64,000 nucleotides of DNA, from the IMG/VR virus record IMGVR_UViG_3300021185_002017. The stretch is one strand, 5' to 3'. The notes under the pieces are model-generated. The model searched no databases. It was not told where the DNA came from and saw nothing but the letters and a program-made list of their open reading frames with translations. Numbering within the stretch: position 1 is the stretch's first letter; every line of letters begins with the position of its first letter. Positions 33,634 to 62,635 of the stretch are shown one piece after another. Source of the stretch: a virus. Its lineage: Duplodnaviria > Caudoviricetes. The translations under genes were made by a program, and so were the position numbers.

Positions 33634-35211
33634 TTAGAGGAATCCGACTGGCAACGGTGCGTCACCATCATCATCATAATCGTTATCAACAATACCACTG
33701 TTAACAACACTATAAACAGCATCTTCAAATGTGCTAATATAATTAACCATACGAACTTGTAACATCATTGCCATAACTAAGTCGTCCATTTCGCCTGGTT
33801 TAGCCTTAAAACTATTGCCTCTAGAAACAAAATTCTTTAATTCACTAATAAGTACTTTACTTTTAACATGTATCCTATCCTGCTCTAGCAGTCGTTTAAA
33901 GTTTAAACATGCTTCCATTTTACTTCTATGTCCAGTATGAAAACCTTTGCGTCCACGCTTTCCTGCAACTTTTTTAGGATCATGTAAGAACTCTCCAGGG
34001 AAGTTTTCTTCACCTGTGTCTCTAATAACCACAAGTGCCGCTTCACCAATAGTATTGTTCTCTACTGTCCAGTATAAGTTTTTACATCCGCTGTTACTAA
34101 GGTACATTAACATTTCCATTAGTATTCGCATTTGTCCTTCTACTGGAGTTCTATTGTGTGCCCATTCTCCTACTTGCGTCATAGTAGATACATTCATAAC
34201 TTGTATGGCTGCATTATCGCCGCCTGTGCCTGAACTTGGGTCTAATGTTAAACTATATATGTGCTGTGGATTAGGTTTATCGTACCAACGAGCTTCACCC
34301 ATTTTACCAATCGGATCAACTCCTTCCATTTCTACTAATCGTAATGGACTAATAAGTGTTTCATCATATATGATAAATTCACATTCGTGTTCTCGTCTAA
34401 ATCTTTCTTCGCCGATTCTTGCTCGTTCTGCAGATGCCCATTCATCATCACGCTCGGGGTGTGAACTCCAAGTTGACAAGTAACCTTTAAATCCGTTGCG
34501 TCCTACCTCTTGTTCATTACCGTACTCGTCAAACAACTTGTTTGCTTCTGCCCAAATAAGTGCAAAAGTATCATCGTCACTGTTAGGCGTACTTGTTACA
34601 ATACAAGCACCACCTGTACTTAGTGTAGGAGATAGTGCTGTCCAAAACTCTTTAGCAATACGAGGAGGCACAAACGCAAACTCGTCTAAGTAGATAAGTG
34701 TTAAGGACATACCACGACCAGTATTTTCAGTTGTTGTAGTACTTACAATACGACTACCATTATCAAATGTTATACTGCCTTTGTTGTATTCTGTAACACC
34801 TGCTCTAATATGATCAGGGGCACACTCGTATGCATAACGAACTCGTTGCATAATTTCACTAGCACCACTTGCTTTGTGTGCCGCTACAAGTATTGTGCTG
34901 TCTGGTTTGAACATAGCAAACCAAAGTAAGTATCCTGCCGCTACAGTGGTTTTACCCATCTGTCTGCCTAGCATGTTAATACTAAATCTATTATTGTTGT
35001 AGTTTTCTATTAAGTCTAACTGATAATCAAATGGTTCAAAATCTATGCCACCCCTAGTAGGATGTTGTATACGCATATGATTAACCATAAAGTATAATGC
35101 ACCTGTCTCAGGGTCAGCACAATTTTTAAAGTCTCGTAAAGTCTCAGGTGTATATGCTACTTTGGCATAACCTTGTTTAACTAGACCAGTATCAACTGTA
35201 CCTCTAGCCAT
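33634..35211 (-). CDS. terL: Terminase large subunit (T4 gp17-like)
   Basis: GRQMGKTT, IYLDEFAF, TSTPN, LDPSSGTGGDNAA, VENNTIG, DDLVMA. Confidence 0.95.
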   Translation of the reverse strand: MARGTVDTGLVKQGYAKVAYTPETLRDFKNCADPETGALYFMVNHMRIQHPTRGGIDFEPFDYQLDLIENYNNNRFSINMLGRQMGKTTVAAGYLLWFAMFKPDSTILVAAHKASGASEIMQRVRYAYECAPDHIRAGVTEYNKGSITFDNGSRIVSTTTTENTGRGMSLTLIYLDEFAFVPPRIAKEFWTALSPTLSTGGACIVTSTPNSDDDTFALIWAEANKLFDEYGNEQEVGRNGFKGYLSTWSSHPERDDEWASAERARIGEERFRREHECEFIIYDETLISPLRLVEMEGVDPIGKMGEARWYDKPNPQHIYSLTLDPSSGTGGDNAAIQVMNVSTMTQVGEWAHNRTPVEGQMRILMEMLMYLSNSGCKNLYWTVENNTIGEAALVVIRDTGEENFPGEFLHDPKKVAGKRGRKGFHTGHRSKMEACLNFKRLLEQDRIHVKSKVLISELKNFVSRGNSFKAKPGEMDDLVMAMMLQVRMVNYISTFEDAVYSVVNSGIVDNDYDDDGDAPLPVGFL

Positions 35212-52951: not shown

Positions 52952-53374
52952 ATGACTACAGCAGCAGGAGTTTTATTTCTTGCTAAAGACACAGGAAGAT
53001 GTCTTTTTCAATTAAGAAAGGCTGAAAAGAGATTTAAAAACACATGGGGTTTCTGGGGAGGCACCATGCACAAAGCCGAAACGCCATATGCTTGTATCCA
53101 ACGAGAGTTAAAAGAAGAAATTGGGTTCGTTCCAGAACTTCAAAAATTAAATCCTATCGATGTATTCCAAAGTAAAGATAAAAAGTTTTTTTACTACAGT
53201 TTCATATATGTAGTAGACAAAGAATTTTCACCTATATTAAATAACGAGAGTGCAGGTTACTGCTGGGTTGATATTGATTGGTGGCCTTCTCCGTTGCACA
53301 CAGGAGCAAAGGTTACTCTTGTTAACAACAAAGGTGCAGAAAAAATTCACACAATCCTAGAAGTAAATTCCTGA
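52952..53374 (+). CDS. NUDIX hydrolase
   Basis: WGFWGGTMHKAETPYACIQRELKEEIG Nudix box. Confidence 0.9.
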   Translation: MTTAAGVLFLAKDTGRCLFQLRKAEKRFKNTWGFWGGTMHKAETPYACIQRELKEEIGFVPELQKLNPIDVFQSKDKKFFYYSFIYVVDKEFSPILNNESAGYCWVDIDWWPSPLHTGAKVTLVNNKGAEKIHTILEVNS

Positions 53375-53386: not shown

Positions 53387-54013
53387 ATGAAAGGCGAGGT
53401 AATAAACTTCGAAGTTCTACGGATACAAAGCGAACTTGATAATTATAGTCGCACAGAAACCTTACCACACCTACTGTTGAACGGGGCATATGATTTAGAT
53501 GAAATATTTGATGCCTACTACGATAAACTAACACCCAAACACAAACTAATTGCAGATCACTTAAAGAGTAACTATGCTACTACTTTAACTAACTGTATAA
53601 CAAGTTTGCGTATGGCTTTGAAAAAAGAGTATGTGGCGGTGATGAAGGATTTATCAACGGAACATGAATCGTTTATATTTGACCATGTTATGAACAAATA
53701 TAGACCGGGCATAAATCCTGTTAGGGCATTGTATTACGAGATACGAGAAGTAAAAAGAAATTTTAGTAGTGAGAACGACTATCATGTCTGGCTGACTGAA
53801 TTACTTACAGACAAAGGCTTTAGAAATATTCTCGAAGATGCTCTAAGAAAAGATGTAACTCGATTAGAAAAAATTATTGCTAGATACTATTTGCCAATAG
53901 TTAAAAACTCTACTGATATACCGCTTGAACTGTTTCATGCTAAACAAACTATTAGTGACTTCCGTCACTATGCTGGTGTGTTTAGAGATATAGACGGTTC
54001 TATGTTTGAGTAA
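53387..54013 (+). CDS. Hypothetical helical protein
   Basis: 208-aa ORF. Its stop abuts the convergent cyclase stop. Confidence 0.65.
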   Translation: MKGEVINFEVLRIQSELDNYSRTETLPHLLLNGAYDLDEIFDAYYDKLTPKHKLIADHLKSNYATTLTNCITSLRMALKKEYVAVMKDLSTEHESFIFDHVMNKYRPGINPVRALYYEIREVKRNFSSENDYHVWLTELLTDKGFRNILEDALRKDVTRLEKIIARYYLPIVKNSTDIPLELFHAKQTISDFRHYAGVFRDIDGSMFE

Positions 54014-56071
54014 TTATTTAGAAGTAGCAATAAAAACACCGTCCCAATCTTTAGGCAGTGTTTGAGTCTTTTGAAATTCGCAACGCTCAATCCACATATC
54101 ATAATAACCTTTCATCTTACCTTCAAAGGCATCGTGTAGTTGCTCACATAATATAATTGCTTTATCAAAGTTTTGTTTACGATATTGCATGTGCATATCT
54201 TCGTGCATTTGTCTTGCTTTTGCATACTTGCCTACTTTAATATCAAGTACTGTGTATATTTCGATGCCCACAGTCTTTCCTTTTACTGCTAGGTCATCTA
54301 CTTTAAGATAAAAGAATTTATTATGTGTGTGCTTGTAAGTGTCTCCTCCCACTAACAACAAGCAACCATATTCCTTACACTTACTTTCTATTCTCGCGGC
54401 AGTACTAACTGCGTCTCCGAGTATGTCATATGAATGTCTGGCAGTGGAGCCCATCTCCCCAATATAACCGAGCCCAGTATTAATACCAGCACCCATACCA
54501 ACTGGCGGTCTACCTTCTTTAACAATTTTATCATTGAATTCCTCTACTGCTCTAAGCATTAGTAATCCTGTGTTCACAGCACTTGCAGGATGATCTGGGT
54601 CGTCCATTGGTGCATTGTGTATGTGCATACTTGCATCGCCAATATACTTAATAACCATTCCGTCTGCATCAAGTATAGGCTGTGTAATGGCATCCATGTA
54701 ACCATTCATTATTTTTGTTAGTCCTTGAACATCATCACCAAAACTTTCTCCTAGTGGGGTGAAGCCACGCAAATCTGAGAAGCATATACTAACTTCTTTT
54801 TTCATACCTTGTTTAATTAAGTCTGGATTTTCTTGCAACATTCTAACAACTGTAGGAGAGGCATATCCAGCAAATTGTTTCTGTATTTCTGCTCGTAGTT
54901 TAAACTGTATCCAAAAGTTATTAAAACTTGCCTGTGTAAAGATTAAGAATGCACTTATTGCAGGAAAAGTAGCATCAAATAAAACTAAGTTTGCTGTATA
55001 AGAATGTACACTATAATATACAATTCCGCCTATAATAGTGACTGTAGTTACTAATCCTGCCCATATAGGCAACTTATATATTGCTAAAGCAATTAATATC
55101 ATGCTCAACAACGCACACAGAAGCTCTGTAAGCAACGATAATTCAGATCTGGTAATGTTACTCCCGTCTATAAAATTCTGTAGCATAGACGCTTGTATTT
55201 GCTGTGGTAGTACGTTGCCTCTAGGTGTGGGTACCGGATTGGCAACGCCTTCTGCACTCACACCCACAATAACGAACTTTCCGCCTAAGTTAGGCAGTTC
55301 ACTCGCATCTACATATTCGTGTTCTTCAAAAGTGTTATTAAATCGTATATATGCTGTACCATTTGGTGTTGTTACTATTGGTTCAAAGGGTGGTACTGCA
55401 AACTCTTGTATTCCTATTTCACTAGTCTTTAAAATGTAACTAGGTTTTTGTGTATAAGTCCTTAACATCTCAATAGCAAAACTAGGATATATCTTTCCCT
55501 CTACTCCAATCGCTAGTGGGTAAGTTCTTGTTTGGTTATCAGGCTGAGGAGCACTTGCTACTACTCCAATACCTGCGGCTACACTTTCTAGTGGTTCAAT
55601 ATTCGTTACGAGATTCGGCCATGTCAGCAAGTAGTTGGTAGCGGGTACTGGGCCTATCGTTCCTGTACCAATGTGCGGACCTGTACTCTTTACTCCTCTG
55701 GAAGATGGGGTTTGGGATAAAACTATGCCGTTGTCTTTCATCCAACTGGAAAGTACTGGATCTCCTCCAAACCGGTCCGTCTCCGGAAACATCACTGTTA
55801 GCCCTATCATTCCTGCATTCTTGTTTCTCAGGTCTGATATTAGTTGTGCAAAATTCTGTCTTGGCCATGGCCATTGTCCCCACTGTTGTAGGCTTTTTTC
55901 GCCAATGTTTATTACTACAACTTCGTTACTTTGTTTAACTTCATCTAATTGTTGGTAGTAATCGAATGTCTGTGAACGCAGACTTTGAACTGGTGTTGGG
56001 TCAGCAACTTTGAGAGCTGTAAGTAATACTATAGATATTGCTACGGCCCAGCCGCTGTATAACCATTTCAT
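54014..56071 (-). CDS. CHASE2-domain membrane class III adenylate cyclase
   Basis: N-terminal TM, CHASE2 (GQWPWPRQNFAQLI, VVASAPQPDNQTRTYPL), three TM helices, then cyclase FSDLRGFT, KYIGD, GINTG, YDILGDAVSTAARIE. Confidence 0.93.
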   Translation of the reverse strand: MKWLYSGWAVAISIVLLTALKVADPTPVQSLRSQTFDYYQQLDEVKQSNEVVVINIGEKSLQQWGQWPWPRQNFAQLISDLRNKNAGMIGLTVMFPETDRFGGDPVLSSWMKDNGIVLSQTPSSRGVKSTGPHIGTGTIGPVPATNYLLTWPNLVTNIEPLESVAAGIGVVASAPQPDNQTRTYPLAIGVEGKIYPSFAIEMLRTYTQKPSYILKTSEIGIQEFAVPPFEPIVTTPNGTAYIRFNNTFEEHEYVDASELPNLGGKFVIVGVSAEGVANPVPTPRGNVLPQQIQASMLQNFIDGSNITRSELSLLTELLCALLSMILIALAIYKLPIWAGLVTTVTIIGGIVYYSVHSYTANLVLFDATFPAISAFLIFTQASFNNFWIQFKLRAEIQKQFAGYASPTVVRMLQENPDLIKQGMKKEVSICFSDLRGFTPLGESFGDDVQGLTKIMNGYMDAITQPILDADGMVIKYIGDASMHIHNAPMDDPDHPASAVNTGLLMLRAVEEFNDKIVKEGRPPVGMGAGINTGLGYIGEMGSTARHSYDILGDAVSTAARIESKCKEYGCLLLVGGDTYKHTHNKFFYLKVDDLAVKGKTVGIEIYTVLDIKVGKYAKARQMHEDMHMQYRKQNFDKAIILCEQLHDAFEGKMKGYYDMWIERCEFQKTQTLPKDWDGVFIATSK

Positions 56072-56076
56072 ATCAA

Positions 56077-56084
56077 TATTTATC
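56077..56084 (-). promoter_or_regulatory. Late promoter GATAAATA (N5 to ATG)
   Basis: GATAAATA-TTGAT-ATG. Confidence 0.8.
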
Positions 56085-56589
56085 GTATTCTATTGCAGTT
56101 ATTTCTGGCTTCGGATAGCACATCATAGTTATTTGCAATCACATGAGCCATTATAAAATTTGGTGCGTATAAGTCGTTGTTTTGAATATCACGCCATTGT
56201 GAATATAATGCAGGACCTAGTAATATTAACTTTAGAAATATTATTTCTTCTGTTGAAGGTCGTTTGCCTAATAAGGGATTTAATTCTTCTACACAGTCAA
56301 ATTTTAATGCCTCTTTAGTTGTGTATACATCTAATAATTGTAATGTAAAAAATATTGTCCATTGCACATTATCAGCTCGTTCGAATGTAAAGTCTAAATC
56401 AAGTTTAGGGTGGGTGAGATGCTTAGGCATATCTTTGTACTGTTCTAATAGTACGCCGTTTATTGTTTCTTCACTGTAGCAACAATAATTACCTGCGTAT
56501 ATAAGTTGTTTTTGAGTTAATGTTAAACTGAGGGCATTTGTACTAAAAAATAAAAGCGACAACGATGCTATTATCATTGCCGCTTTCAC
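56080..56589 (-). CDS. Hypothetical exported/membrane protein
   Basis: GTG start, signal peptide, LQLLDVYTT...ELNPLLG hydrophobic motif. Confidence 0.65.
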   Translation of the reverse strand: MKAAMIIASLSLLFFSTNALSLTLTQKQLIYAGNYCCYSEETINGVLLEQYKDMPKHLTHPKLDLDFTFERADNVQWTIFFTLQLLDVYTTKEALKFDCVEELNPLLGKRPSTEEIIFLKLILLGPALYSQWRDIQNNDLYAPNFIMAHVIANNYDVLSEARNNCNRIR

Positions 56590-56669
56590 CTTACTCGCAC
56601 TCCTGAGGATTTTCAGAACAATATTTTTTGATTTGTTGAATTAACATTTTTATATCGCTCTCATTATCT

Positions 56670-56713
56670 GCCTTCTTCTCCTTTCGTGGAGACAAAAGGC
56701 TTAGTCCTTTTTT
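56670..56713 (-). other. Candidate -1 programmed ribosomal frameshift signal
   Basis: In-frame A_AAA_AAG (56713-56707), 6-nt spacer, then stem-loop GCCTTTT-G-TCTCC-ACGAAA-GGAGA-AGAAGGC (56700-56670). Confidence 0.6.
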
Positions 56714-56976
56714 GGTTCTTGCAATTCGTCAGTTTGTTTATCGACTTCCTGTTCTACAGTTTCTATAACACCACTAGCTGCTTCCGCTGCTGTAGTTGCT
56801 ATGCTAGAAGCATCTTTTAAAACCGCTTGACTTACAGTCGAAACGGCATTAACAGATCCATCTACTACGCCGGTTGTGAACTCTTTACCACCTTCAATAA
56901 CTGCACCAACTGATGCACATGACGGTAAAAATACCACCAAACTGAGACCTGCTAGAATAGTGAATAGTCTATTCAT
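56701..56976 (-). CDS. Small lipoprotein (amphipathic Ala/Val/Gly repeats)
   Basis: Lipobox-like FLPSC. Start moved to 56976 (AGGAG RBS). Confidence 0.75.
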   Translation of the reverse strand: MNRLFTILAGLSLVVFLPSCASVGAVIEGGKEFTTGVVDGSVNAVSTVSQAVLKDASSIATTAAEAASGVIETVEQEVDKQTDELQEPKKD

Positions 56977-57024
56977 AAGGTTCTCCTTAGTTTGTTGTAA
57001 CATGCGGCATGCATATTACAATAG

Positions 57025-57032
57025 TATTTACC
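57025..57032 (-). promoter_or_regulatory. Late promoter variant GGTAAATA
   Basis: Upstream of the lipoprotein gene. Confidence 0.5.
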
Positions 57033-57052
57033 TTATATAAAGGCAAGTTATC

Positions 57053-57169
57053 TTAGATTAGAAGTAATCCTATTGCAAAGCCTATGTTTAAGCCTATAGA
57101 ACAAACTAATATAAAGTCCTTATTAAACGAATATGGTACTAGTTCTACTATTTCTTTGTTATGTGCCAT
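57053..57169 (-). CDS. 38-aa single-transmembrane protein (not in the ORF track)
   Basis: MAHNKEIVELVPYSFNKDFILVCSIGLNIGFAIGLLLI, with AGGA RBS at the curlin stop. Confidence 0.6.
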   Translation of the reverse strand: MAHNKEIVELVPYSFNKDFILVCSIGLNIGFAIGLLLI

Positions 57170-57176
57170 CCTATTC

Positions 57177-58265
57177 CTAGTTGCTACCATTCACTGTTAT
57201 TGAACACCCTGCTGTGTTAAAACATATACCTGTGATGCTGTAAGTGCCTGCTGATGATGTCATGTTTTGTATTAAGTCAAGTGTGTAAGCACCAGTACCG
57301 TATGTTAAATCTATGGTTGCTGTTGCGTTATTGCTGCCTCGTTGGTTAACATCAACACTATGTCCATCACCATCTAACACAATGTCTGCCCATTTAACAC
57401 CACCGTTGCCTCGTTGATATAAGTCTACGGTGTTATTATCACCGCCTATTTCTATAAAGCCATCGTGTCCTGCTTTGCCCATTTGTGTATGCTCTACACT
57501 ATTACTATCGCCAGTAATAATATTTGCTAAATGATGTCCTGCTCCGCCGCCTGATCTGTTTGTATCTGTTTGATAACTTGCTAACGAATTATTATCTCCA
57601 GTCACAGTCCAGTATGCTTCGTGGTCTCCTACTTCGTCTGAATCTGTTGTGCCGTCGGCATGTTTGCCTTGCCATACTCTGAGATCGTTGTTATCTGATC
57701 CGGAACCCATAATAGCTCTAATATAATTGTCATCCTGCCCGTTACCCTGGAAAGCATCAATGCTATTATTGCTACCAGAAAATACTTCAAGGTAAGCATA
57801 ATGGTCATCGCCTTCTTGCCAAAGTTGTATTTCATTATCAGTGTTAGAATTACTAGTACCTGATTCTAACCAAGCATAATTGTTATCACCCATTACATCT
57901 ACTTTTAAATCAGTATAATTACCATGGGCATCTAATAATACTGCGTTGTAATCACCTTCTGTGTAGGCATCTAATGTTTGATTACTACCACTACTCCATA
58001 TACCTAAAACATTATTGTGGCCTCTTTGTTGTAGGCTTACTGTTTTTGTGGCGCCATTAAGAATGGCAGCTGAATTTGCGTTGTCTAATTTTCTAATTGT
58101 ATTGCCGGTCCCTGCTTGTAATATATCCATTGTTAGGTTATCACCTGTCTGATCTATATTTATTTCGTTGTCTTGGCCGTAGCATGCCTGTGCAGTAAAG
58201 AACATTAATATAACTAGTATACCTAAATGTGTTCCTGTTATTTTGTTTAATATATTTTTAATCAT
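57177..58265 (-). CDS. Curlin-repeat protein (CsgA/CsgB-like, long)
   Basis: Signal peptide and many QxGxxN repeats (IDQTGDN, ILQAGTGN, LQQRGHNN, LWQEGDDH, LYQRGNG, VNQRGSNN). Start moved to 58265. Confidence 0.85.
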   Translation of the reverse strand: MIKNILNKITGTHLGILVILMFFTAQACYGQDNEINIDQTGDNLTMDILQAGTGNTIRKLDNANSAAILNGATKTVSLQQRGHNNVLGIWSSGSNQTLDAYTEGDYNAVLLDAHGNYTDLKVDVMGDNNYAWLESGTSNSNTDNEIQLWQEGDDHYAYLEVFSGSNNSIDAFQGNGQDDNYIRAIMGSGSDNNDLRVWQGKHADGTTDSDEVGDHEAYWTVTGDNNSLASYQTDTNRSGGGAGHHLANIITGDSNSVEHTQMGKAGHDGFIEIGGDNNTVDLYQRGNGGVKWADIVLDGDGHSVDVNQRGSNNATATIDLTYGTGAYTLDLIQNMTSSAGTYSITGICFNTAGCSITVNGSN

Positions 58266-59433
58266 TTTGTGTAATTTTAATGTATATGCCTTCACACTGG
58301 TTCAAGCAAAACACTGTTTCTCCCGTATCTGAATCGTTAATAATAATTTGAGCCATAGAGCCTTGTGCTAATTTTATTCCTATTTTATTATTAACTTCTC
58401 TTAGAAAAAATACCTTACCATCGTATTCTGGAAAATTATTAAACTGACTAGTAGGGTCTCGACCCCATTGTTGGCTTATTAATTTATCTCCAGAGCCACT
58501 TGACAGTTTTTCTTCTGCAAGTGCATCTATATCGTCACTTAAAACTTCAAGTAAATCGTTTAAAAACTCTACATTTAAATAATCTATATCTAACTCAGAA
58601 AATTCAAATTGTCGATCTGTATCTTCTTCTAATACTGCTTGGTCTAAAAAATCTTGGTCTAATCCATCAAAATCTAATAACCCAGCATCTCCTTTTAATT
58701 GTTCCTGTTGTTCTTCTTGTGCTACAGTAATCTCTTTTGGTTCTGATACAATGAACATGTTGTCTATCATATCTAAATTTAAGTTTACTAACTTAACTGG
58801 TGGAGTTGGTATAGTTTCAAATGTGCTTACCATTACTGCTTGGTATGCTTCATCTAATATTTGTGTACCACCATCATTAGTAACTGTTATACTTCCACTC
58901 GGAGCACAGCCTTCTTCTAATTTAACTTTGTCTGTACAATCTTCGTCTGGCAATAATATTACCAAACTTCTACCCAGTTCATCTACTGTGGTAGTAAAAT
59001 CTGTTCCCCTAATACCAATACTGGCTGTGGGGGTTTGTATTTGTATATTTTCTCTTGCTACAAGTCCTAATCCACCTGTGGCAAATCTTGCTGTTCCTGA
59101 CACAAAATTTAAAGCCATTTTACTTTTATTAGGGTCTGGATCAAATACATACTCGTTAATTTCCATGTATGTATTTTCTGTTAGACTAACTTGCGTATCG
59201 TCTACAAATTTAATCTTTAATCTACCGTTAGCAGTTTCTACTTCGTCCATGCTAACAATATTTGTTTCTAGTTCTGCTTGTAATGTTTCGCCTGTAGTTC
59301 TTGAAATCTTACCTACTGAACCAGATTGTTCAAATATGCCGCCAATATTCTCAGCGGCACTTATTGAACTTGTTGCAACGCAACTAAGTAGCAAAAGCCA
59401 CTTAATCTTGCTGAACAACGCTAACCGATGCAT
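58258..59433 (-). CDS. FecR-domain exported protein with acidic C-terminal region
   Basis: Signal peptide, DEVETANGRLKIKFVDDTQVSL, QTPTASIGIRGTDF, SGSITVTN. Start moved to 59433. Confidence 0.85.
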   Translation of the reverse strand: MHRLALFSKIKWLLLLSCVATSSISAAENIGGIFEQSGSVGKISRTTGETLQAELETNIVSMDEVETANGRLKIKFVDDTQVSLTENTYMEINEYVFDPDPNKSKMALNFVSGTARFATGGLGLVARENIQIQTPTASIGIRGTDFTTTVDELGRSLVILLPDEDCTDKVKLEEGCAPSGSITVTNDGGTQILDEAYQAVMVSTFETIPTPPVKLVNLNLDMIDNMFIVSEPKEITVAQEEQQEQLKGDAGLLDFDGLDQDFLDQAVLEEDTDRQFEFSELDIDYLNVEFLNDLLEVLSDDIDALAEEKLSSGSGDKLISQQWGRDPTSQFNNFPEYDGKVFFLREVNNKIGIKLAQGSMAQIIINDSDTGETVFCLNQCEGIYIKITQND

Positions 59434-60196
59434 TTTCACTATCAATTTCTAAATTGATAACTCCTGCACATGCTGGTGTGCATGTAGCAGTCATATTTTG
59501 TATCAGTTGGAAGTCTCCATCAGAGCCTTCGTATTCTACAATCATGCTGTTACCGTCATTACTAGCCTGCTTTGTTGCGAATGCATTGTCGTCACCTGTA
59601 ATATCAAAGTTCCAAACATTGTTACTTGAATCTATTACTATACCTGATAAAGTCTGTGTGCCGGTGGCATTATTGCCAGAACCTGCAGCCCATACTTTGC
59701 TGTTAGTAAAACTAGTTGAAAAGTCATTCCTGTCACCTAGTATAATTAGATCCATGTTGTTGCTTTCAGCAGCTGCGTTACCACCAATATCTATATCAAA
59801 TAAGTTCGTAGAACCTACTACGTTTGATAAGATATCGTTATAATCAGCACTACCTGAAGCACCCATGTTCATATCCCAAATATTACTATCGCCTTGGAAG
59901 TAAAAGTCAAGAACTGCTGTGCCGTCTCCGTCAGCAATCCATGAACCAAACATCTCGTTCAAGTTACCGTCTTGTATTAAGTCTACAATTAACGATGCAC
60001 CTGTAAGTGTTAAGTCCGCACTTTGACTTGTATTCCCGGATAAACTGTTACCGTAACCAGCCTGTAAGATAGTTAAGGTTAAGTTATCACCAACTTGTTC
60101 GATTAAAACTTCGTTATCTGCACTAGCTAAGTTCATTGATAAGAAGCAAATCGTAGCGAAGACACCTGCAATCATTTTGCGTGTAAAAGTCTTCAT
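59402..60196 (-). CDS. Curlin-repeat protein (CsgA/CsgB-like)
   Basis: Signal peptide, IEQVGDNL, ILQAGYGN, LIQDGNLN, YFQGDSN, ITGDDN. Start moved to 60196 (GGAGA RBS). Confidence 0.8.
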   Translation of the reverse strand: MKTFTRKMIAGVFATICFLSMNLASADNEVLIEQVGDNLTLTILQAGYGNSLSGNTSQSADLTLTGASLIVDLIQDGNLNEMFGSWIADGDGTAVLDFYFQGDSNIWDMNMGASGSADYNDILSNVVGSTNLFDIDIGGNAAAESNNMDLIILGDRNDFSTSFTNSKVWAAGSGNNATGTQTLSGIVIDSSNNVWNFDITGDDNAFATKQASNDGNSMIVEYEGSDGDFQLIQNMTATCTPACAGVINLEIDSENASVSVVQQD

Positions 60197-60214
60197 TATA
60201 TTCTCCATATATGA

Positions 60215-61165
60215 TTAATCATTCTCATTATCCTCCGCTGACTTTTTGTCGTTAGAGGGGTTAGTTTTCAATTCTTCTGTGTCAGTACCGTCGACTGTAC
60301 CTAGTGTGATGTCATCCGATTCTAACGGATAATTTATTTTCCAGAAACCTCTTTCGTCTCCTTGTTCGATGAGAGCATACACTGCGGCTTCTATCGCTGA
60401 CCTGACCGCCCATGTTACACTTTCATTCTCTGTCATACCACTCTCAAGTTCGAGTAACTTTGTATCCATGTCAAGAAACTTGAATACATCACCACCCATG
60501 CCAACACTGAGAATAGTTTTGTATGTCTGTACATTTATGATCACTTCCCCAGTAAGTACACTAACTGCTCTAAGAGAAACTACAACGCTGTCTCTTCTAT
60601 ATTGATTAGTTGTGCCTATTCCTAGGTAACGAGCACCATTTCCACCGGTCTCAATATTAGAGTCGTAGCCTATGACGCCGCCTTCTAATATCACTCCCGC
60701 AAATAATAATGGTTGTACATCCTGTGGAGGAGTTTCAGCCGTAGCATAACTATCACGTGTGCTACGGATTATCTGTCTTTCTCTCACAAGATTATCTAGA
60801 CCCAACCCTCTTTCAACTACTCTGAACCAGGTTCCTTTAGGATCTGAATCAGCGCCTGCTGCTTTGAGTGCGTCTATTAATAAAGATTTTGCACCTTGGG
60901 TAACTGCGGTACTAAAACTAGCCGCCCCATCTGTACTCAATCTTTGTCCTGTTAAGTCGTCAAACTTGTATACTGCTACAATCGGTCTTGTTGCCGCTGG
61001 TGGCAGTTGTCGTAATTTTTTATATGTTGGTAGTTGTACTTCTCTAGGCTCTTCTATACATTCTAAAAAGCCAGTGTTACAGTTCGAATCGCCAGGCAGT
61101 GCCATACTTGCACAACCTGAGAACAAGCCTACACACATAAATGCAATTGCTATATTCTTAAACAT
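60215..61165 (-). CDS. csgG: Curli secretion channel lipoprotein CsgG
   Basis: Lipobox LFSGC, VAVYKFDDLTGQ, STAVTQGA, WFRVVER, NLVRERQIIRSTR, GGNGARYLGIG. Confidence 0.93.
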   Translation of the reverse strand: MFKNIAIAFMCVGLFSGCASMALPGDSNCNTGFLECIEEPREVQLPTYKKLRQLPPAATRPIVAVYKFDDLTGQRLSTDGAASFSTAVTQGAKSLLIDALKAAGADSDPKGTWFRVVERGLGLDNLVRERQIIRSTRDSYATAETPPQDVQPLLFAGVILEGGVIGYDSNIETGGNGARYLGIGTTNQYRRDSVVVSLRAVSVLTGEVIINVQTYKTILSVGMGGDVFKFLDMDTKLLELESGMTENESVTWAVRSAIEAAVYALIEQGDERGFWKINYPLESDDITLGTVDGTDTEELKTNPSNDKKSAEDNEND

Positions 61166-61701
61166 TAGCCGCCTATACTTCCGATTCCGATCGGTATTTC
61201 AATTTCAGTGATACTGCCATCTGGAGCAACAATGGTAAGTCTAATTACTTCCATTCCATCTTCTGTATAAGTTCTTAAGTAAGACACTGAATTACCTTCA
61301 ATCGTAAATTCGCCTGCATCTGAGTTTGTACATGTAATAACTGTTGCTGGGTCACAGAACATACTGTCTACCAATCCTTTTGATATTTGTGCGTATATTC
61401 TAGACTCTAAATTTCTTATGAATTTGTTTATTGTGCTGTTAGCATCTTCTCGTTCTGCTTGTCTTAGTGCAGACTCGATGTCGTCTTTGATTTTATCTCT
61501 ACGACTTTTTTCTTGGTTTTCAATAGTTAGGTAATGTGCTCCAGTACCTATACCATTAAAACTTGGTGATTTAAATTTGTGAACCAATTGGTCAGCGGTT
61601 GCTGTACTTGGTAGTAATAATAGCATGCCTAATAAAATGTAGCCTAGTACTAATAAAGGCGTATCCTTTGGTCTCATTTCGTTAAGTTTCTTGTCTATCA
61701 T
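61165..61701 (-). CDS. csgF: Curli assembly protein CsgF
   Basis: Signal peptide, then QLVHKFKSPSFNG, LTIENQEKS, NLESRIYAQIS. Coupled to csgG. Confidence 0.88.
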   Translation of the reverse strand: MIDKKLNEMRPKDTPLLVLGYILLGMLLLLPSTATADQLVHKFKSPSFNGIGTGAHYLTIENQEKSRRDKIKDDIESALRQAEREDANSTINKFIRNLESRIYAQISKGLVDSMFCDPATVITCTNSDAGEFTIEGNSVSYLRTYTEDGMEVIRLTIVAPDGSITEIEIPIGIGSIGG

Positions 61702-61704
61702 AGT

Positions 61705-61995
61705 CTATTCCTTCCTGTTTGTCTTTAACTGTTCTTCTGTTTGTGCATCCTTTATAATTTGTTCTTTGGCTTTATATTCTAAAACAACATTTACTTTTTG
61801 CTGTAATCTAATTAAATCTTGATCAAGCATACGAGTTTTGTCAATAACTTTAATTAAAGCCATGTGCATTTCTTCTAGAGCAGGATCAATTTCTTCTCCT
61901 ATGAACTTCCAGATAAAATACACAAAATATCCGAGGCCAACTGCCATCACTACAGGAAACCCGTAATCGTTAATAGCGTTGACTATTTCTTCCAT
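61705..61995 (-). CDS. Small membrane protein (N-terminal TM plus coiled coil; holin/BhlA-like architecture)
   Basis: DYGFPVVMAVGLGYFVYFIW. Similar architecture to 62199..62495. Confidence 0.65.
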   Translation of the reverse strand: MEEIVNAINDYGFPVVMAVGLGYFVYFIWKFIGEEIDPALEEMHMALIKVIDKTRMLDQDLIRLQQKVNVVLEYKAKEQIIKDAQTEEQLKTNRKE

Positions 61996-61996
61996 T

Positions 61997-62197
61997 TTAT
62001 TCTTCTTCTTCTACTAGTGTTGCCTCAATGTGTTCAAATCTGTCTATATCAAATTTCTTAAACACAATTGTGCCGTGTTTGTCTTCTGTTACAATAAATG
62101 TATCACCTGCTTTAAATCCTATTTGCTCTAATGATAATTCCTTGTCTAATTTCAATCCTTCCTCTGTAGTTTCTAGCTCATATTCTAGATATCGCAA
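61997..62197 (-). CDS. Small acidic protein, possibly AbrB-like fold
   Basis: LEQIGFKAGDTFIV pattern. Confidence 0.5.
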   Translation of the reverse strand: MRYLEYELETTEEGLKLDKELSLEQIGFKAGDTFIVTEDKHGTIVFKKFDIDRFEHIEATLVEEEE

Positions 62198-62198
62198 A

Positions 62199-62495
62199 CT
62201 AGTCTCTCCTTACATCAATTTTGCCTTCTTCAATGAAGTTTTCAGCTCTAGCAATACGTTCTATATCTGGTCTTAACTCTAAGGCACTACTAACTAACAT
62301 ATCAATCTTAATCATTTCGTTTGACATTGTTGTAGCTCTATTTTCTAAACTTTTACAAAAAATAGTTAAAGTTTTAACTTGCTCAACAACACCTTGGAGT
62401 ATTTGTTTTATAACTAAAAATATAAAGAAACCCATTACAATACTTCCAGCAATCGGTGCGCCAACATCGCCTATTAATTGAAAAATCTCGGTCAT
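62199..62495 (-). CDS. Small membrane protein (N-terminal TM plus coiled coil)
   Basis: DVGAPIAGSIVMGFFIFLVI, with GGAG RBS. Confidence 0.65.
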   Translation of the reverse strand: MTEIFQLIGDVGAPIAGSIVMGFFIFLVIKQILQGVVEQVKTLTIFCKSLENRATTMSNEMIKIDMLVSSALELRPDIERIARAENFIEEGKIDVRRD

Positions 62496-62585: not shown

Positions 62586-62593
62586 TATTTATG
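62586..62593 (-). promoter_or_regulatory. Late promoter variant CATAAATA heading the curli operon
   Basis: Immediately downstream of the terminator at 62607. Confidence 0.55.
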
Positions 62594-62606
62594 ACTTTGG
62601 AGCCAT

Positions 62607-62635
62607 AAAAAAAGCACTCCGAAGAGTGCTTTTTA
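62607..62635 (-). terminator. Intrinsic terminator AGCACTC-TTCG-GAGTGCT (third copy; U-tracts on both sides)
   Basis: Read directly, after the fibre gene. Confidence 0.85.

Follow-up and report, generated by a model that had tools for sequence, protein, structure and literature searches.

We analysed a window of 64,000 nucleotides (nt), the whole of a stretch of viral DNA from IMG/VR record IMGVR_UViG_3300021185_002017 (Caudoviricetes), and focused on a gene block on its minus strand between positions 54014 and 62495. Running from 62495 down to 54014, the co-oriented block encodes two small membrane proteins, CsgF, CsgG, curlin-1, a FecR-domain protein, curlin-2, a peptide of 38 or 45 amino acids (aa), a lipoprotein, an exported protein and a CHASE2 cyclase. 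Profile searches of the block proteins against Pfam and PHROGs established the identities of CsgF, CsgG, curlin-2, FecR and the cyclase, and all genes named in a preliminary description of this DNA were recovered at the same positions and in the same orientation; a 66-aa open reading frame (ORF) between the two small membrane proteins was absent from that list. Each conserved member of the block belongs to a PHROGs family, all of them classed as 'unknown function'. Judged by gene content and order, the block is a new copy of a published phage module that combines a type VIII secretion system (T8SS) with FecR and a cyclase. Its features, all on the minus strand, are the following.

62606–62630, minus: terminator-like hairpin with a T-run, read from the sequence; it ends the upstream fibre-like gene and sets the block apart.
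62586–62592, minus: ATAAATA motif resembling a late promoter, 91 nt ahead of the first gene; a consensus match only.
62199–62495, minus: small membrane protein 1, 98 aa (phrog_18771, E 8e-24); the 'HK' of the published module.
61997–62197, minus: doubtful 66-aa acidic ORF with a TTG start; an insertion between the two small proteins.
61705–61995, minus: small membrane protein 2, 96 aa (phrog_18771, E 4.4e-27); a paralogue of protein 1.
61165–61701, minus: CsgF-like protein, 178 aa, with a Sec signal peptide (PF10614, E 8.7e-10; phrog_35372, E 2.4e-40).
60215–61165, minus: CsgG outer-membrane channel lipoprotein, 316 aa (PF03783, E 1.4e-46; lipobox FSGC).
59402–60208, minus: curlin-1, 268 aa, with a signal peptide and curlin-like repeats (Curlin_rpt E 0.037, below cut-off).
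58258–59445, minus: FecR-domain protein, 395 aa (PF04773, E 3.8e-11).
57177–58295, minus: curlin-2, 372 aa (Curlin_rpt, PF07012, E 9e-14, three stretches); it opens the variable slot.
57053–57190, minus: small transmembrane (TM) peptide of 45 aa, shortened to 38 aa if the second ATG is used; visible in the sequence.
56701–57003, minus: small lipoprotein of 100 aa (91 aa if translation starts at ATG 56976, which follows AAGGAG); lipobox-like LPSC.
56080–56589, minus: exported or membrane protein, 169 aa (weak DUF5658, E 2e-4, below cut-off).
54014–56071, minus: CHASE2 class III nucleotidyl cyclase, 685 aa (PF05226, E 2.8e-36; PF00211 Guanylate_cyc, E 1.5e-15).

No phage record matched the block by megablast. 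With the cyclase as tblastn query, hits were obtained to Methylophilales phage Melnitz (51% identity) and to Pelagibacter phage HTVC008M (32%). In both genomes the gene order of the block is repeated: two small proteins, CsgF, CsgG, a curlin, FecR, a second curlin and the cyclase, as the Melnitz genome is annotated, with protein identities of 34–51% to Melnitz and 25–47% to HTVC008M. Comparison was extended to 89 viral loci, with gene order judged only where the flank suffices. In every such locus the genes follow one another as small protein 1, small protein 2, CsgF, CsgG, curlin-1, FecR, variable slot and cyclase, followed by a convergent gene for a 208-aa protein, and this order is common to podophages, pelagimyophages and the jumbo lineage to which the window belongs. 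In the minimal form, seen in the Melnitz-like contig L192, the FecR stop overlaps the cyclase start. The module was described by Wittmers et al. (2022) as 'HK'-CsgF-CsgG-CsgA/B-FecR-CsgA/B-AC in podophage and myophage pelagiphages, together with its ocean-wide distribution, expression and alphaproteobacterial affinity (PMC9599517). The combination of curli, FecR and cyclase genes was therefore already known. Zaragoza-Solas et al. (2020; PMC7029224) and Buchholz et al. (2022; PMC9004378) discuss the CsgF/CsgG part, and the main text of both papers leaves the cyclase and FecR unmentioned. Genes and order in the window are the same as in the viral T8SS of HTVC023P-type podophages, HTVC008M-type pelagimyophages and Melnitz. 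The window differs from the pelagiphage module in its carrier, which is jumbo T4-like, and in three extra small genes between curlin-2 and the cyclase.

The block encodes a complete curli-type export unit comprising CsgG, CsgF and two Sec-exported curlin-repeat proteins. CsgG matches the solved E. coli CsgG structures at E 2.6e-47. In an alignment to E. coli CsgG, the constriction Phe is retained, Ser takes the place of the adjacent Asn, and the Tyr is not conserved. CsgF scores 39.3 bits against PF10614 (cut-off 25.8), and a phmmer search of the solved structures with it gave no CsgF match, the solved E. coli CsgF included. The csgF and csgG genes share an ATGA overlap at 61165, and a curlin-repeat gene comes next; its product, curlin-1, cross-matches curlin-2 as well as the curlins encoded beside bacterial CsgG. 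CsgF residues 1–36 (61594–61701, the signal peptide region) are 74–79% identical to the N-termini of curlin-2 variants elsewhere (L006:10708–10812, L040:2717–3658 and others), which suggests that leader segments are exchanged within the module. CsgG, CsgF and curlin-repeat proteins are shared with the bacterial curli system (E. coli CsgABCDEFG), whose CsgA has 151 aa. The two phage curlins, at 268 and 372 aa, are much longer, as the preliminary description had pointed out. Its remark that csgE and csgD are lacking also stands: no CsgE, CsgC or CsgD family was found by Pfam among the proteins of the block. The alphaproteobacterial curli loci are alike in this respect, lacking CsgE, CsgC and CsgD as well (PMC9599517).

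The two halves of the phage block were then traced in bacteria through the 80 closest cyclase loci, mostly from Alphaproteobacteria, and through CsgG neighbours in 401 alphaproteobacterial genomes. Profiles built from the phage proteins found CsgG, CsgF, curlins or the small proteins in none of the 80 cyclase loci. Conversely, a close CsgG (44–52% identity) is present in 7 of the 401 genomes, and all seven loci have CsgF and curlins nearby without FecR or a cyclase. The curli unit and the FecR/cyclase pair are separate in the bacteria sampled, in agreement with Wittmers et al. (PMC9599517). Unlike the phage block, the sampled bacterial curli loci contain neither FecR nor a cyclase nor the small membrane proteins. 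In terms of the synteny search proposed in the preliminary description across phages and hosts, the order is kept in related viral loci, HTVC008M and Melnitz, and the halves lie apart in the sampled bacteria.

FecR itself was a frequent neighbour of the bacterial cyclases. A FecR-domain ORF occurs in 33 of the 80 loci and in 26 of the 50 that have full flanks (at least 8 kb on both sides); 13 of 34 bacterial FecR ORFs are no more than 400 bp away from the cyclase. Many of these FecR partners are 900–1500 aa long, lack a signal peptide and carry Cadherin_4, Big_9, FG-GAP or RTX repeats; others, of about 420–445 aa, are Sec-exported and resemble the phage protein. A type I secretion ABC exporter (some with a C39 domain) together with an HlyD-type protein was found in 27 of the 80 loci, a TolC-type gene in 13 and ORFs binding cyclic nucleotide monophosphate (cNMP) in 11. 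Those scanned with Pfam comprised three cNMP-EAL fusions, one cNMP-SpoIIE phosphatase, one CRP-type regulator, one cNMP-HlyD fusion and two cNMP-binding proteins that stand alone. Four loci (L144, L145, L132 and L131) show a recurrent arrangement of type I ABC exporter and HlyD, with or without TolC, a CHASE2 cyclase, a FecR-headed FG-GAP/cadherin/RTX protein without a signal peptide, and a cNMP-EAL phosphodiesterase; in L131 the HlyD protein itself bears a cNMP-binding domain. These neighbourhoods suggest that a common role of the FecR/CHASE2 pair in bacteria is to serve surface proteins linked to secretion.

The partnership of FecR with CHASE2 cyclases, put forward in the preliminary description, also has an experimental counterpart. 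On Sinorhizobium meliloti pSymB, a 1216-aa ORF with FecR (E 1.6e-15) and TPR domains overlaps the start of a 649-aa CHASE2 cyclase. This ORF pair fits NsrA/CyaK, for which NsrA was shown experimentally to be required for signalling to CyaK (PMC7529298). With FecR also beside the closest bacterial relatives of the phage cyclase, FecR-domain proteins stand as a usual partner of CHASE2 cyclases. The phage pair resembles S. meliloti NsrA-CyaK/CyaD1/CyaD2 (Garnerone et al. 2018; PMC7529298) in that a FecR envelope protein is encoded beside a CHASE2 class III cyclase. It differs in that NsrA is large, with TPR repeats and an outer-membrane beta-barrel, whereas the phage FecR has 395 aa, is Sec-exported and barrel-less; the phage pair is, moreover, embedded in a curli locus. 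Campylobacterota FecR+CHASE2 clusters likewise link a periplasmic FecR protein to a CHASE2 sensor, but contain a phosphodiesterase and a TPR protein and no curli unit (PMC9239204). The Burkholderia BiofilmReg operon links a LysM-FecR protein to a CHASE2 histidine kinase and differs from the phage block in its two-component kinase output and in having no curli unit (PMC5192318).

The phage FecR protein is composed of a Sec signal peptide, a FecR beta domain (residues 33–234), an acidic disordered linker (232–318) and a C-terminal beta domain (320–395). Its structural model (predicted local distance difference test, pLDDT, 73.5) superimposes on the cell-surface-signalling domain of PupR (6ovk) with a Z score of 15.3, and its first 100 residues give a middling Z of 6.9 to 5ix9, a 76-residue 'cell surface anchoring domain'. 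The C-terminal domain folded alone reached a pLDDT of 60.6, too poor for a structure search. The model contains no outer-membrane beta-barrel, only the FecR domain, the disordered linker and the small beta domain. The Pfam family name FecR, and the absence of CsgE, which may leave the pore ungated (PMC9599517), could be taken to favour an uptake channel with iron sensing, an alternative raised in the same paper, in which the ungated CsgG pore would import cofactors or siderophores and FecR would be a ferric-citrate-type regulator. We regard this as very improbable. N-terminal to the FecR domain, where a cytoplasmic anti-sigma domain and TM segment would be expected, only a Sec signal peptide was found; within the block there is no FecI-type sigma factor of the extracytoplasmic-function class and no TonB-dependent receptor; and the nearest bacterial relatives of the phage FecR adjoin CHASE2 cyclases, not FecI/FecA. 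A FecIRA-type anti-sigma 'iron regulator' assignment for FecR was rejected on domain content.

The cyclase, an inner-membrane protein, consists of a TM segment, a periplasmic CHASE2 domain, three TM helices, a catalytic domain and a conserved C-terminal tail, with CHASE2 at residues 15–325, hydrophobic stretches at 5–24 and about 313–395, and the catalytic domain at 423–606. Alignment to CyaB (3r5g) and CyaC (1wc0) located the class III metal-binding aspartates (D433 and D479), the adenine-selecting lysine K475 with D549 at the position that is usually Ser or Thr, and the transition-state arginine R560.

Taken together, these data are compatible with a fibre-coupled envelope sensor, to which we give a probability of about one half. 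The module would join an alphaproteobacterial-type curli locus to a FecR/CHASE2-cyclase envelope sensor pair. By analogy with bacteria, the infected cell would most likely export curlin fibres through CsgG/CsgF; the periplasmic FecR would relay to CHASE2 a state of the envelope or one related to the fibres; and this input would set the production of cyclic AMP (cAMP), with an output acting on host proteins. Candidate purposes are cell aggregation, superinfection control and lysis timing. The bacterial pair usually accompanies a secreted surface adhesin, and we infer that the phage module is probably a curli-based counterpart of the bacterial secretion-linked FecR/CHASE2 pair.

Several observations weigh against this fibre-coupled sensor. 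The phage FecR is neither fused to a fibre protein nor, unlike NsrA, provided with a barrel. Contact between FecR and CHASE2 is proposed by analogy, and complex prediction for FecR 31–240 with CHASE2 25–322 scored 0.00, which is evidence neither way. In the cyclase, the transition-state Asn is replaced by Ser556 in the alignment to 3r5g and 1wc0. Among 233 relatives examined for active-site residues, 218 show D-K-D-[S/T]-N-R with the Asn retained and nine show D-K-D-D-S-R (Asp549/Ser556), namely the window clade, the Melnitz clade and one short contig. Because the pair is kept across an overall identity of 51% (Melnitz clade), Asp549/Ser556 looks like a selected variant rather than decay; Ser556 makes the activity or product of the cyclase uncertain. 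Searches of the window, the 89 viral loci, HTVC008M, Melnitz and three large contigs recovered no cNMP-binding domain. With no recognisable phage cAMP receptor, any cAMP made would have to act via host proteins. Podophage versions of the module are often without the cyclase (PMC9599517), and no clumping was seen in Melnitz cultures (PMC9004378). In most relatives a variable slot of 0.7–8.8 kb lies between FecR and cyclase, and the two genes are 2.2 kb apart in the window. As for expression, contigs from four seawater metatranscriptome runs match parts of every block gene at at least 99% identity, with uneven coverage that peaks on the lipoprotein, on curlin-1/CsgG and on the fibre gene upstream; this suggests that the block is transcribed, with DNA carry-over in the RNA libraries as a possible contribution.

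The slot between FecR and cyclase also varies in content. One contig matches the window at 94% identity in FecR and 97% in the cyclase, yet at just 37–42% in curlin-2 (37%), the lipoprotein and the exported protein, which points to cassette replacement. The exported 169-aa protein is swapped for versions of 33–46% identity in relatives. Pfam searches of ten slot proteins from relatives (L030, L031, L038 and L043) returned nothing but a weak cytochrome c match. The small TM peptide is 81–93% conserved in close contigs and appears to move within the module: in L031 (at 1690) and L036 (at 3212) it lies between small protein 2 and CsgF. This swap-prone slot, the frequent lack of a cyclase in podophage modules and the separation of the two halves in all bacterial loci sampled would all be expected if the block held two unrelated cargoes in a hypervariable region, with the curli fibres or pore serving their own purpose and FecR/cyclase reprogramming the host via cAMP, and no signal flowing between them. 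We consider such independence unlikely: FecR, the usual partner of the cyclase, is placed between the curlin genes and not next to the cyclase; podophages, pelagimyophages and the jumbo lineage all keep the order; and in bacteria the same sensor pair is accompanied by a different secretion system and the adhesin which that system secretes.

The bacterial loci also allow a more speculative extension of the fibre-coupled sensor, which we offer tentatively and would doubt sooner than accept. The phage module may be the T8SS version of a wider, so far undescribed design composed of a secretion system, a surface repeat protein, a FecR domain, a CHASE2 cyclase and a cNMP effector. In bacteria, an adhesin secreted by the type I system would have the FecR domain as its periplasmic end, and CHASE2 would read the retention or load of this adhesin; in the phage, the curlins and CsgG/CsgF would replace the adhesin and the type I system, and cAMP would report on fibre export or on engagement of the infected cell.

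The small proteins at the head of the block are paralogues, each with one N-terminal hydrophobic helix; in protein 1 this single TM helix is followed by a charged helical tail. Both are homologous to their HTVC008M and Melnitz counterparts. A Pfam search reported down to E<=0.1 gave no match for either one, HisKA and HATPase_c included. The histidine kinase ('HK') label carried by these proteins in the published pelagiphage module finds no support in the window: Pfam shows no kinase domain, and 96–98 aa are too short. An Atlas search with protein 1 returned viral hypothetical clusters only, with a weak YvrJ lead. The 66-aa ORF between the two (61997–62197) has no Pfam match, shows only 36–46% identity in contigs with flanks of about 90% identity, and is missing from most relatives. 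The N-terminus of protein 2 has a weak holin-like match (phrog_4898, E 0.004). Together with the late-type promoter motif, this match is what speaks for a lysis-timing device, an idea of Buchholz et al. (2022; PMC9004378), in which the CsgG/CsgF pore and the two small holin-like proteins would form a gated pore or pinholin-like system and the cyclase would time lysis. We think this quite improbable, as an outer-membrane pore cannot depolarise the inner membrane, the conservation of two Sec-exported curlin-repeat proteins with the pore favours a secreted substrate, and Pfam and PHROGs identified no endolysin or spanin within the block.

The promoter motifs themselves stand as consensus matches only. 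Of the three late-type promoters that the preliminary description had placed in the block, two are ATAAATA, at 62586–62592 (behind the hairpin) and 56077–56083; the third, at 57025, is reduced to TAAATA. Across the window, ATAAATA shows no enrichment (22 found versus 26.5 expected; 18 of the 22 on the coding strand), and the T4 consensus TATAAATA has one site in the window, below chance. On the minus strand, ATAAATA lies exactly 5 nt before the ATG of four genes, at 56077 (the cyclase), 45305, 36046 and 33623. If it is a late promoter, those four mRNAs would be leaderless; otherwise the motif would have another role. A lipoprotein RNA contig recurs in four libraries, extending from 57001–57006 down to 56594–56600 with adapter at 57006 in two runs; it spans a 110-nt gap, and a TAATAT-like element lies upstream of its 5' end. 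Its depth exceeds that of the rest of the block, and it resembles a short transcript of its own.

Beyond the block, the window is T4-like, with genes for tail sheath, terminase and a gp41-type helicase. Its large terminase (33634–35211) is 58% identical to that of Pseudomonas jumbo phage PA5oct, 68% to that of a 339,794-bp IMG/VR contig that CheckV rates 91% complete, and just 33% and 30% to those of Melnitz and HTVC008M. By terminase similarity, the carrier is a jumbo T4-like marine lineage distinct from pelagimyophages. Convergent to the cyclase, a 208-aa protein without a family match is encoded on the plus strand at 53387–54013, preceded in the window by a NUDIX hydrolase (52952–53374, plus strand). 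The 208-aa gene is found in nearly every related viral locus, at 22–91% identity, and may belong with the module.

The block itself was thus already published; what is added here is the jumbo carrier, the separation of the halves in the bacteria sampled, the adhesin-like FecR partners, the swapped slot and the Asp549/Ser556 pair. First annotated ten years ago, the module abounds in ocean viromes and supplies infected cells with a secretion system absent from known hosts. Its function becomes testable through the reading of FecR as a CHASE2-cyclase partner rather than an iron regulator, and through the view that in bacteria the sensor pair travels with secreted adhesins and cNMP effectors. Together, these two readings point to a possible phage-controlled link between surface fibres and cAMP.

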